Assembly (NCBI GenBank): GCA_963795085.1
Contig: CAWCFX010000006.1
Span: forward strand, 288,001 to 352,000
Reading direction: 5' to 3'
DNA from: an uncultured Gemmatimonadales bacterium
Lineage (GTDB): Bacteria; Gemmatimonadota; Gemmatimonadetes; Gemmatimonadales; GWC2-71-9
Length of the DNA: 64,000 nucleotides
The notes beneath the pieces were generated by a model. The model saw only the letters and a list, made by a program, of their open reading frames with translations. It ran no database searches and had not been told where the DNA came from. Made by a program: the position numbers and the translations under genes. This document shows positions 55,619 to 58,027 of this stretch, piece after piece (position 1 is the stretch's first letter; every line of letters starts with the position of its first letter).

Positions 55619-56356
55619 TCATCGCAGGGATAGAAACACGTCGTACAGCGCGTGAGTCCAGGCGGCGATGCCGAACCCGCGCAGCAGGTAGAGCCCGCTG
55701 AACAGCACCCCCGCGATAGCCCGGAAGGTGAAGGAGTTGAGCTCCAGCGGGTCGCCGTAGGGGCCGATATAGTGAAACGCCGAGAAGACCAGCGCGCCCA
55801 CCACCGTCGCGACGATGCCCGCCACCACCGGTTTCCAGCCCAGCAGCAATCCCGCCCTGGCCAGCGCCGCTACCAGCAGGACCCGGAACAGGAGTTCCTC
55901 GTAGAGTCCCGCCCCCAGGGAGATCATCAACTGCGTCGGCAGGTTCATCCGCTCGATCGCGGTCTGGGACGCCACAGTATAGAGCGTGCCGTGCAGCAGC
56001 AGGGAGGTCAGCGACGCCGCCACAAAGCCGAAGAGCAGGGCGTAGATGCTGGACTCCGCCAGCATGCCGAGGAAGAGCCGGGGCGACAGTTCCCGGCCCG
56101 CGCGCTTCCAGTCCCGGTAGGCCAGCACCAGCAGCGTCCCTACCAGGAGAACTCCGAACGCCACGACACCCCGCCGGCCACCCATGGCGATGAACACGCT
56201 CTTCATCAGCACGTCGGCCCCGTTCCGAACGCCGGCGATGGCGTCGCCCGAGAGCGCGAAGGCGAGCACCTCGTAGAGCAGGAGCAGGGGGATGGCGAAG
56301 AGGAGACTGTACCGGGGGGCCCGGGTGAGGGACCAGTAACGGGGAGCGGGAGGCAT
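55619..56356 (-). CDS. CPBP (CAAX/Abi) family intramembrane protease
   Basis: EELLFR, FSAFHY, HALYD. Confidence 0.88.
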   Translation of the reverse strand: MPPAPRYWSLTRAPRYSLLFAIPLLLLYEVLAFALSGDAIAGVRNGADVLMKSVFIAMGGRRGVVAFGVLLVGTLLVLAYRDWKRAGRELSPRLFLGMLAESSIYALLFGFVAASLTSLLLHGTLYTVASQTAIERMNLPTQLMISLGAGLYEELLFRVLLVAALARAGLLLGWKPVVAGIVATVVGALVFSAFHYIGPYGDPLELNSFTFRAIAGVLFSGLYLLRGFGIAAWTHALYDVFLSLR

Positions 56357-56435
56357 TGATGGAGGATAAGGGGGCAAGGGGGCACGCGGGCAAGGGGCCC
56401 GCAGCCCGTGGGTCTGGGGCTAGGCTTTTCGCCGA

Positions 56436-56464
56436 TTGATCTCCTCGCCCGAATCTGGTACTTT
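56436..56464 (+). promoter_or_regulatory. Sigma70 promoter with extended -10
   Basis: TTGATC-N17-TACTTT, with TG-N immediately before the -10. Confidence 0.6.
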
Positions 56465-56470
56465 CTCTGC

Positions 56471-56675
56471 GAAGTCAGATTTCTGCCCTATGTTCCACCT
56501 TTTGCGAAGGAGGTGATCCATTGTCTAGTGAGAGTTGCATCGCAGGCTCGAATCGGGCAAACGGTCGCCTGGTAACGCGCTAACCGATACGAAGCGCAAT
56601 CGAGAGCGACGCGTTTTCGAGCTCGATGCCAACAGAAGGCGCCATTCACCTCCGGGTGGGTGGCGCCTTTCACTT
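56471..56675 (+). ncRNA. Candidate small structured transcript carrying a short ORF
   Basis: Promoter, GNRA hairpin masking an extended SD, further hairpins and a terminator-like stem. Confidence 0.5.
56521..56583 (+). CDS. Candidate 20-aa peptide MSSESCIAGSNRANGRLVTR
   Basis: TTG start 7 nt after AGGAGG, directly following AAGGAGGTGATCCA. Confidence 0.4.
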   Translation: MSSESCIAGSNRANGRLVTR

Positions 56676-56676
56676 C
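56636..56676 (+). terminator. Terminator-like hairpin
   Basis: AAGGCGCCATTCACC-TCCG-GGTGGGTGGCGCCTT followed by TCACTT (weak U tract). Confidence 0.6.
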
Positions 56677-56731
56677 CCCCCAGCCAACCGGCCCCCTTGC
56701 CCCCACTTCCCGTCCCGGCCACCATTCCCCC

Positions 56732-58027
56732 ATGCGCCCCTCGTTGCTCTACCGTGCCGGCCTGGCGCTCTCCCGGCCGCTGATCCCGCTGGCCGGGCTG
56801 CTGAGCGCCAAGATCGCACGGGGCCACCGGGCCCGGGCCGGGGCGCTTGGGCGGATGGAGACATGGGGCCGCACCCAGCGCGACCCGTCTCGCCCCCTGG
56901 TCTGGTTTCATGCCCCCTCGGTGGGCGAGGGACTGCAGGCGCGCAGCGTCCTGAGCCGGGTCCGGCTGCGGCATCCCGAGTGGCAGACGGTGTACACCCA
57001 TTTCAGCCCCTCGGCCGAGCGATTCGCCGAGGGCATCGGCGCGGACCTCGCCGATTACCTGCCCTACGACGGCATGTCCGCCGCCCGCCGCCTGCTGGAG
57101 TCGCTGCGGCCCACCGTCCTGGTGTTCACCAAGCTCGACCTGTGGCCGGAACTCGCCACCGCCGCCCGGAACCGCGGGGTGAAGGTGGTGCTCGTCGCGG
57201 GCACCGTGCGGCCGAAAAGCAGCCGGCTGCGCTGGCCGGCCCGGCGGCTCATCCGGCCCGGGTATCGAGCGCTCGATGCGGCCCTGGCCATCGCGGAGGC
57301 CGATGCCAAACGGCTGGTGACGCTGGGGGTGCCGTCCGGGGCGGTGAAAGTGGTGGGCGACCCCCGCTTCGACAGCGTCCTCGACGTGGTCCGGTCGGTC
57401 CCCCCCGATGACCCGATGAAACGGTTCGGGAGAGATGCCGTGACCCTGGTCGCCGGCTCGACCTGGCCGGGCGATGAGGCCGTCCTCCTCGATGCCTATG
57501 CCCGGCTCCGGGTGCACCGGCCGGATGCGCGCCTCATCCTGGTCCCTCACGAGCCGACCACCGCTCACCTGAGCGGGATCGACCGCATGGCCAACCGGGC
57601 CGGCCTGCCGGCACCGGTACGGTTGAGCTCGGCGGGCGGACCGGTCCCCTTCCTGGTGGTGGACCAGGTCGGATCCCTGGCCCGCCTCTATGGCGGCGGG
57701 GCGATGGCATACGTGGGCGGCGGGTTCCACGGCCAGGGGCTCCATTCGGTGCTGGAACCCTCGGCGTGGGGCATTCCCTCGGTGTTCGGCCCGCGATGGA
57801 CGGAAAGCCGGGATGCTTCGCTACTGCTGGAAGCCGGTGGGGCGGAAGCGCTGGCGGAACTGGGGAACTACGAAGCGGCGGAGGCCCTGCAGGCCCTCTG
57901 GGAGGACTGGATCATCAATGAGGTCCGGCGCAAGGCCCAGGGCCGGAAAGCGCTGGCGGTGGTGCAGAGCGGCGCCGGTGCCGCCGACCGCTCCGCCGAC
58001 CTGATCGAGGAGGTCATGCGCCACTAA
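56732..58027 (+). CDS. waaA: 3-deoxy-D-manno-octulosonic acid (Kdo) transferase
   Basis: WFHAPSVGE, YLPYD, LWPE, GDPRFD, AGSTW, VGGGF..HSVLEP. Confidence 0.92.
   Translation: MRPSLLYRAGLALSRPLIPLAGLLSAKIARGHRARAGALGRMETWGRTQRDPSRPLVWFHAPSVGEGLQARSVLSRVRLRHPEWQTVYTHFSPSAERFAEGIGADLADYLPYDGMSAARRLLESLRPTVLVFTKLDLWPELATAARNRGVKVVLVAGTVRPKSSRLRWPARRLIRPGYRALDAALAIAEADAKRLVTLGVPSGAVKVVGDPRFDSVLDVVRSVPPDDPMKRFGRDAVTLVAGSTWPGDEAVLLDAYARLRVHRPDARLILVPHEPTTAHLSGIDRMANRAGLPAPVRLSSAGGPVPFLVVDQVGSLARLYGGGAMAYVGGGFHGQGLHSVLEPSAWGIPSVFGPRWTESRDASLLLEAGGAEALAELGNYEAAEALQALWEDWIINEVRRKAQGRKALAVVQSGAGAADRSADLIEEVMRH

Follow-up and report, generated by a model that had tools for sequence, protein, structure and literature searches.

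The small mRNA rreB of Bradyrhizobium is 165 nt long and combines a 17-nt Shine-Dalgarno (SD) sequence, complementary to the 16S rRNA tail, with a 14-codon frame that starts with GTG (PMC5711450). It is recovered mainly in the ribosome fraction and co-sediments with the 30S subunit; rre small mRNAs are weakly translated, and replacing the start codon of rreB by a stop codon stabilizes the RNA (PMC5711450). Analogues with 16–17 nt of complementarity have been described in Caulobacterales, Rhizobiales, Rhodobacterales (rreR, 18 codons) and Rhodospirillales (PMC5711450), and the Caulobacter member, CC2171, is seen on Northern blots in Methylorubrum (preprint 10.1101/2022.01.24.477521). Hahn et al. 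(2016, RNA Biol 14:1353, PMC5711450) describe rre genes from Alphaproteobacteria only and leave their function unexplained. Here we describe an element of about 200 nt on a 64,000-nt stretch of DNA, hereafter the window, from an uncultured Gemmatimonadales bacterium (assembly GCA_963795085.1, contig CAWCFX010000006.1, positions 288,001–352,000). The element is probably an independent rre-type small gene, that is, a ribosome-docking mini-mRNA, in Gemmatimonadota. The class itself is already in print; the Gemmatimonadota lineage of the rre-type element appears to be the new part, and a literature search of partial coverage returned no published rre gene outside Alphaproteobacteria.

A conserved unit with an extended Shine-Dalgarno sequence

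Three features define the unit:

56479–56675, + strand: small gene unit of about 200 nt, intergenic, with bounds taken from our own model
56507–56520, + strand: extended SD AAGGAGGTGATCCA, 14 nt perfectly complementary to the 3' tail of the 16S rRNA encoded in the same genome
56521–56583, + strand: 20-codon frame MSSESCIAGSNRANGRLVTR, started by a TTG directly 3' of the 14-mer and ended by TAA

The 16S rRNA gene of the same genome ends in ...CTGGATCACCTCCTTTCT, and the complementarity spans the whole free 16S tail, with one extra G.U pair possible at 56506. Within the window, the runner-up among contiguous complements containing GGAGG measures 8 nt. These results bear out the preliminary description of the locus, which had read the 14-mer as a perfect complement of the 16S 3' end and as far longer than any other SD in the window. 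The duplex predicted between the SD and the 20-nt 16S tail reaches −28.9 kcal/mol, compared with −12.2 kcal/mol for an AGGAGG control oligonucleotide, and it outweighs the 9.9 kcal/mol that opening the SD and the start codon is predicted to cost.

Four other complementary sites of 12–15 nt occur in the genome outside the rRNA gene, all of them within open frames of at least 406 codons. Because GAG-GTG-ATC is ordinary in GC-rich coding sequence, the 14-mer alone is not beyond chance genome-wide. What marks it out in the sequence is its intergenic place, the adjoining start codon and its conservation; the longest open frame running over the site has at most 86 codons. In this genome (G000), the 15-nt complements of the 16S tail stand at C1:742855 (− strand) and C2:276483 (+ strand). 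They lie in frames of 578 and 2021 codons, the first immediately preceding an ATG, and both are probably chance runs of GAG-GTG-ATC-CAG codons. By a rough proxy, GGAGG stands 4–10 nt before 1.68% of long-frame starts in G000, against about 1% for control pentamers (1.7-fold), and neither of the genes that flank the unit, waaA and a CAAX-protease gene, has an SD-like motif before its start. SD use in this genome may be modest, and we base no argument on this proxy.

We next considered how widely the unit is distributed. A blastn search matched 13 of 41 relatives. The core motif, with at most one mismatch, was present in 158 of 401 Gemmatimonadota genomes, compared with 1 of 401 for a reversed control; it is nearly always single-copy and is carried by six families. 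The mismatches listed concentrate at the third position of codon 2 and in the pair of spacer bases that precede the start codon, and GGAGGTGATC is identical in all aligned relatives. R1, a covariance model trained on 12 close relatives, matched 70 of 151 genomes, once in each except G150, which has a second, partial match, and it had no match in the 19 genomes of the three families (f10, f11 and f12) that do not belong to the class of the window. Both tallies include unpublished genomes (G083 in both, G121 in that of R1). The unit is conserved in Gemmatimonadota, essentially single-copy and about 200 nt long. The preliminary description had rested its case on the SD hairpin, the frame and the terminator recurring in relatives, and the CACC:GGUG pairing of the hairpin, the frame length and the terminator are indeed kept.

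The folded segment has a minimum free energy of −89.4 kcal/mol (z = −4.79), and none of 200 shuffles was equally stable. GC content is 0.49–0.58 in the unit and 0.67–0.79 in its flanks, in agreement with the drop relative to the flanking genes that had been noted before, and all elements listed in the preliminary description were found in the sequence where it had placed them. Judged from its sequence, the conserved small RNA gene at 56479–56675 is real. Its initial characterization as an unannotated small RNA or micropeptide gene, possibly a ribosome-binding RNA, fits the rre hallmarks and a conserved unit with a terminator.

As in rre genes, the complementarity extends up to the start of a small open reading frame that is conserved within its clade. 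The best Rfam match at the locus is RF01867 (CC2171), with an E value of 0.016 in 1.5 kb and of 0.009 in the whole 3.9-Mb genome, where the site is the top match to this family. The family model aligns over its full length (model positions 1–159) at 56496–56666, with confidence over the AAGGAGGUGAUCCA-NUG-UCU core and the terminator and without confidence in the middle. Both the CC2171 5' consensus AAAGGAGGUGAUCCAGUGUCU and its 3' terminator hairpin are present. A permissive Rfam scan of 55800–57300, up to E = 10, gave CC2171 as its single meaningful match and no match to 6S, ROSE, fourU or a riboswitch.

Beyond the phylum, a scan with GGAGGTGATCCANTGTCT in one genome per species returned at least 120 loci, mostly alphaproteobacterial; among the matches listed were 18 from Gemmatimonadota, a few from Gammaproteobacteria and one from Planctomycetaceae. 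R1 also matched alphaproteobacterial loci (14–33 bits), and we did not take these matches as homology, since the loci had been chosen by the shared 18-nt motif and such matches are expected. Contigs labelled Hydrogenophaga, Parcubacteria, "bacterium" and Betaproteobacteria carry the motif as well (L125, L132, L108 and L140). The matches at L125 and L132 resemble alphaproteobacterial CC2171 sequences, and the odd labels of these metagenome-assembled genomes may reflect binning errors or contamination. A further set of gammaproteobacterial and other loci (L028, L124, L119, L041, L120, L128 and L133) has ATG frames of about 25–26 codons that start with MSS(G/E/D)(M/I), some with a downstream CCUCC, and they appear to be another rre-like group, beyond the taxa in print.

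RNA structure and the short frame

The structural features of the unit are as follows:

56496–56515, + strand: SD-masking hairpin CACCUUUU-GCGA-AGGAGGUG, part of the minimum-free-energy structure and −9.5 kcal/mol on its own
56534–56552, + strand: 5' strand of a long-range helix, pairing with 56616–56633 (RNAalifold, 12 relatives)
56616–56633, + strand: 3' strand of the long-range helix, which encloses the frame end and a variable central domain
56635–56675, + strand: intrinsic terminator with a 16-bp stem (56635–56650:56655–56670), a UCCG loop and a weak U tail (UUUCACUU)
56555–56569, + strand: conserved RNA box GGGCAAACGGUCGCC in codons 12–16, with GGGCA and G.TC.CC invariant, wobble positions included

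The long-range helix and the terminator covary. For the helix, both sides have changed in 6 of 16 pairs among 12 sequences, and among 41 sequences 7 of the 8 pairs of its inner part have done so, with 93.6% paired. The terminator shows both-side changes in 11 of 16 pairs in the smaller set and in all 16 in the larger one (95.8% paired), and clear U runs follow it in several relatives. The terminator-like stem that had been proposed with 15 bp is thus present, with 16 bp. A further hairpin, TCGAGAGCG-ACG-CGTTTTCGA, fared differently: its letters exist, but its 3' half (56616–56623) instead pairs with 56545–56552. This small hairpin, at 56600–56620, was rejected as a less likely fold than the covarying long-range helix. 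A 4-bp start-codon hairpin (CAUU/AGUG), predicted by RNAalifold in close relatives, was also set aside; it is weak, and its two outer pairs are each broken in 17–18 of 41 loci.

The strands of the SD hairpin read as DNA CACCTTTT (56496–56503), GCGA and AGGAGGTG (56508–56515). Its CACC:GGUG pairing is retained in all 12 close relatives. Across 41 loci, each of the four core pairs is kept in 27–39 and none is compensatory, as the SD strand is fixed by 16S rRNA and leaves the hairpin without covariation. While the CACC strand is well kept, the remaining stem and the GNRA loop are poorly kept. The proposal of a hairpin that masks the SD and is capped by a GNRA loop therefore stands as regards the hairpin and fails as regards conservation of the loop, GCGA being found in the window and two relatives only.

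A second partner for the SD may lie within the frame. As read from the sequence, GGUCGCCU in codons 14–16 can form 8 bp with AGGUGAUC of the SD, which makes the RNA box a possible second anti-SD. Three loci have GAUCUCC at the box position, containing the canonical CUCC anti-SD. Loci with GGAGGTGGTC have a box reading GATCGCC or GATTGCC, which is wobble-compatible with the SD and not compensatory.

The frame could matter as RNA or through its peptide. One explanation holds that the unit is a micropeptide gene, in which the functional product would be the 20-aa peptide (MSS...RA(S/N)(D/G)R...), the long SD and the structure having no role beyond setting its expression level. The start codon and the frame length agree with it. 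Among the 131 core-motif matches listed, the base before TG is G in 89, T in 25, A in 17 and C in none, so that every match reads as one of the three bacterial start codons and the fourth base is absent. Frame lengths in Gemmatimonadota fall into classes of 19–21 codons (23 of 23 loci), 14 codons (9 of 9) and 11 codons (25 of 25), and one locus has a 25-codon frame; the first stop in the +1 frame scatters widely, and that in the +2 frame mostly comes early, at a conserved TCTAG. The 18 loci found by the model only all have GGAGGTG(A/G)T, a TTG 1–2 bases past the core and 16–22 codons, and 16 of them have 19–21 codons, which brings the 20-codon type to 39 of 41 loci within that range. The TTG...TAA frame that had been placed at 56521–56583 is thus present, with its length kept in relatives. 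In addition, an N-terminal MSS and an R/W-A-S/N-D/G-R motif recur, some codon-2 changes are synonymous (TCT to TCC or TCG), and Hahn et al. treat RreB and RreR as conserved small proteins (PMC5711450).

The codons themselves point the other way. In nine genomes, the entropies at the three codon positions of the rre frame are 0.38/0.45/0.42, with 7/8/7 of 18 sites variable, compared with 0.62/0.38/1.06 and 134/93/213 of 228 for the CAAX-protease gene of the same genomes. The flanking gene shows the usual coding pattern, whereas the third-position excess is absent from the frame. What recurs as the "RASDR" motif is the invariant RNA box GGGCAAGCGAUCGCC; its wobble positions do not vary either, which points to RNA, and codons 4–11 vary freely. 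Depending on the genus, the slot between waaA and the CAAX gene holds either the 20-codon frame or the unrelated 11-codon MSTESRVACG., and synthetic RreB and RreR are unstructured in solution (PMC5711450). We consider it unlikely that the peptide is the product. Since the frame has no coding signature and the box is fixed at its wobbles, the constraint seems to act on the RNA and on frame length; amino acids are not visibly under selection, which for frames this short is indicative rather than conclusive. The peptide is polar and has no hydrophobic stretch, consistent with the earlier remark that it is unlike a classic type I toxin, for which a hydrophobic, membrane-active peptide is expected.

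An upstream mini-frame running through the hairpin (ATG TTC CAC ... AGG AGG TGA) was rejected, as relatives with other loop lengths break it.

Genomic context and proposed action

The surroundings of the unit are as follows:

55619–56356, − strand: Rce1-like CAAX protease gene, flanking
56732–58027, + strand: waaA, Kdo transferase gene, flanking
56436–56464, + strand: promoter-like TTGATC (56436–56441), 17-nt spacer with TGn, and TACTTT (56459–56464), read from the letters
56485–56488, + strand: invariant GCCC box in the presumed 5' leader, identical in 16 of 16 and 12 of 12 aligned relatives

At 39 related loci, waaA and the CAAX-protease gene are divergent and the element occupies the space between them. 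Only in the genus of the window is the element directed towards waaA, which is downstream at L003 and L004, while the CAAX gene is upstream on the opposite strand at L002. At those loci of other genera where a flanking gene is present, the element is directed towards the CAAX gene, with a 20- or an 11-codon frame alike, and for the 14-codon type (L011 and L013) neither flanking gene was found. Between the window and L005–L008 or L147–L169, the small gene alone is inverted, and waaA and the CAAX gene stay divergent at every locus. As its orientation differs between genera, the small gene has been inverted on its own, as would be expected of an independent unit and not of a leader dedicated to waaA. 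The same slot carries MSTESRVACG. (11 codons; L147–L167) or MSS...RASDR... (about 20 codons; L001–L010 and L144–L169), and across these unrelated frames the SD, CCACC and the G(G/A)UCGCC box are kept. The third type, with 14 codons and MS(T/H)DP..ARIAG.., sits elsewhere in the genome.

This layout bears on the possibility that the unit is a cis-acting leader or attenuator, in which translation of the frame decides passage through the terminator into waaA here and into the CAAX gene in relatives. The layout resembles such a device, with its short frame and alternative pairings and with 62 nt separating the terminator from the waaA ATG at 56732, and in other genera the CAAX gene begins shortly past the terminator. 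However, the downstream gene changes with the orientation of the element, and an element placed between divergent genes has a co-oriented gene downstream whichever way it faces, which makes the layout uninformative. The 14-codon type in Gemmatimonadota has neither flanking gene, the terminator stems are long and conserved, and the context of alphaproteobacterial rre genes is not conserved, rreB lying between tRNA and sensor genes (PMC5711450). An attenuator is accordingly improbable, and the suggestion of a leader controlling readthrough into waaA is not supported, the element pointing to the CAAX gene in most relatives.

The unit might also act in trans, with an incidental frame, either as a 16S-tail sponge by which 30S subunits are titrated or marked or by pairing with mRNAs. 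This reading would draw on the very stable predicted duplex with the whole 16S tail, on the recovery of rreB mainly with ribosomes (PMC5711450) and on nucleotide conservation above that of a coding gene. It is highly improbable given a conserved start codon and frame length that a pure decoy would not need, one copy per genome, and the judgement of Hahn et al. that sequestration is unlikely, since growth was unaffected by overexpression and the RNA is far less abundant than ribosomes (PMC5711450).

For an rre-type mini-mRNA, a course of action can be proposed by analogy with rreB. The RNA would dock on the 30S subunit through the long SD duplex, which is predicted to be far stronger than the local hairpin masking the SD core. 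Both the excessive length of this duplex and the TTG start would hold translation down, and the fate of the RNA, decay or refolding, would be settled on the ribosome. The SD may pair with either of two partners, the CACC that precedes it and the GGUCGCC box of codons 14–16; with one of them lying in the frame, binding or passage of a ribosome should switch the fold of the 3' domain. Because frame length is kept and codons are not, the likely output is this event of ribosome docking and short translation, and not the peptide. More speculatively, rre-type mini-mRNAs might be ribosome-docking RNAs of several phyla that are either ancient or have spread more than once. The Gemmatimonadota element, single-copy and at a fixed locus, could then serve as an RNA device sensing the state of free 30S subunits through docking, short translation and a fold switch, as opposed to a peptide gene. 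We put forward this broader picture only tentatively.

Upstream of the unit, the promoter-like TTGATC-N17-TACTTT with an extended −10 element had been proposed before and is present at 56436–56464; it is a plausible candidate promoter with a weak match to the consensus. In relatives, TAGAAT, TACAAT or TAAAAT hexamers lie 18–23 nt 5' of CCACC, and the distance in the window is 30 nt. A simple scanner for sigma-70 promoters and terminators returned none of either over 56000–57200; it was silent on the terminator because the U tail is too poor for its rule. The GCCC box has a counterpart in GGGC (56555–56558) inside the frame, which is likewise invariant among relatives. A pairing of the two was rejected as part of the fold, as it would cross the covarying long-range helix; the pair could represent a pseudoknot, an alternative state or a protein site.

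Comparison with rre genes, CC2171 and leader RNAs

Several points weigh against assigning the element to the rre class. Its CC2171 match scores 23.5 bits against a gathering threshold of 75. The complementarity amounts to 14 nt plus one G.U, compared with the hallmark of at least 16 nt given by Hahn et al., and relatives keep only GGAGGTGATC plus variable spacer bases. As the spacer bases before the start differ among relatives (CCA, CAA, CCC and CTA), about 11–13 nt of the duplex are universally kept. Covariation support for either of the SD-masking pairings was sought in the 12- and 41-sequence sets, and none was found. The values for the whole structure are also tied to its origin. In the 12 sequences from which the structure was derived, 94.7% of cells are paired, compared with 31–45% when partners are slid, and 19 pairs have changed on both sides, compared with 2–12 in slid controls; the corresponding 88.0% among 41 sequences (33–49% with partners slid) comes from an alignment fitted to the model's structure. 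The missing codon signature is drawn from short frames. In the reference system, overproduction of rreB in B. japonicum had no growth effect, and the function of that member is itself unexplained (PMC5711450). Finally, any long SD must match the same 16S tail, so the likeness to the alphaproteobacterial genes is partly forced and convergence may account for it. By strict criteria (the CC2171 threshold and at least 16 nt), the element is not a member of rre/CC2171.

To place the score in context, 20 motif loci were compared using the Rfam CC2171 model. Five alphaproteobacterial loci pass with 82.9–120 bits, a Bradyrhizobium locus reaches 59 bits and two Rhodobacterales loci 37–40 bits. All 10 Gemmatimonadota loci fall below the threshold (20.8–36.3 bits), a locus labelled Pseudomonadota only (L041) scores 36.6 bits, and at E values up to 1 no match was obtained for the Pseudohongiella locus (L028). 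A scan of the window at gathering level likewise found no Rfam family at threshold. The preliminary description had made novelty conditional on the absence of a strong hit to a known Rfam family; novelty stands insofar as CC2171 stays below its threshold, and it falls insofar as the rre class is already published.

The rre/CC2171 RNAs are conserved and ribosome-bound, and about ten years after their description their function is still unexplained. A second, phylum-wide lineage gives independent comparative leverage: its start codon differs, its duplex is shorter, its three frames are unrelated and it has an additional anti-SD upstream. The features that the phyla have in common are the GGAGGUGAUC core, a fixed spacing from there to a weak start codon, a frame both short and fixed in length, the G(A/G)UCGCC box, the closing helix and the terminator, and it is most likely this constant part that carries the function. 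Given the missing codon signature, work should target the interaction of the RNA with the ribosome rather than the peptide. For annotation, a recurrent gene is being missed in Gemmatimonadota by current pipelines and Rfam thresholds.

Leader peptides of ribosome-dependent attenuators are short frames within alternative RNA pairings before a terminator, and in type I toxin mRNAs the SD is masked by an intramolecular anti-SD. The element resembles these systems in its short frame, alternative pairings, terminator and masked SD, whereas it has no fixed downstream gene, no regulatory codon run and a polar peptide.

From rreB and rreR, the element differs in its host phylum (Gemmatimonadota versus Alphaproteobacteria) and in the length of the complementarity, which is 14 nt with one additional G.U versus 16–17 nt. 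It further has an added upstream CCACC anti-SD and another peptide, of 20 aa, and shows no codon sign of amino-acid selection. It starts with TTG where rreB has GTG, and the first base of its start codon lies outside the duplex. The 30S association of rreB was shown experimentally; for the lineage described here, a search of sequencing runs listed none of RNA. With the rre genes it shares the layout of a small, self-contained unit with a terminator, the transcript here being a predicted one. In all of them, the SD covers the whole single-stranded 16S tail and reaches a weak start codon, the SD is partly held in a hairpin, and a tiny frame (11–21 codons) encodes a clade-specific peptide. The in-frame box G(A/G)UCGCC, which can pair with GGUGAUC, is seen in Bradyrhizobium-type loci too.

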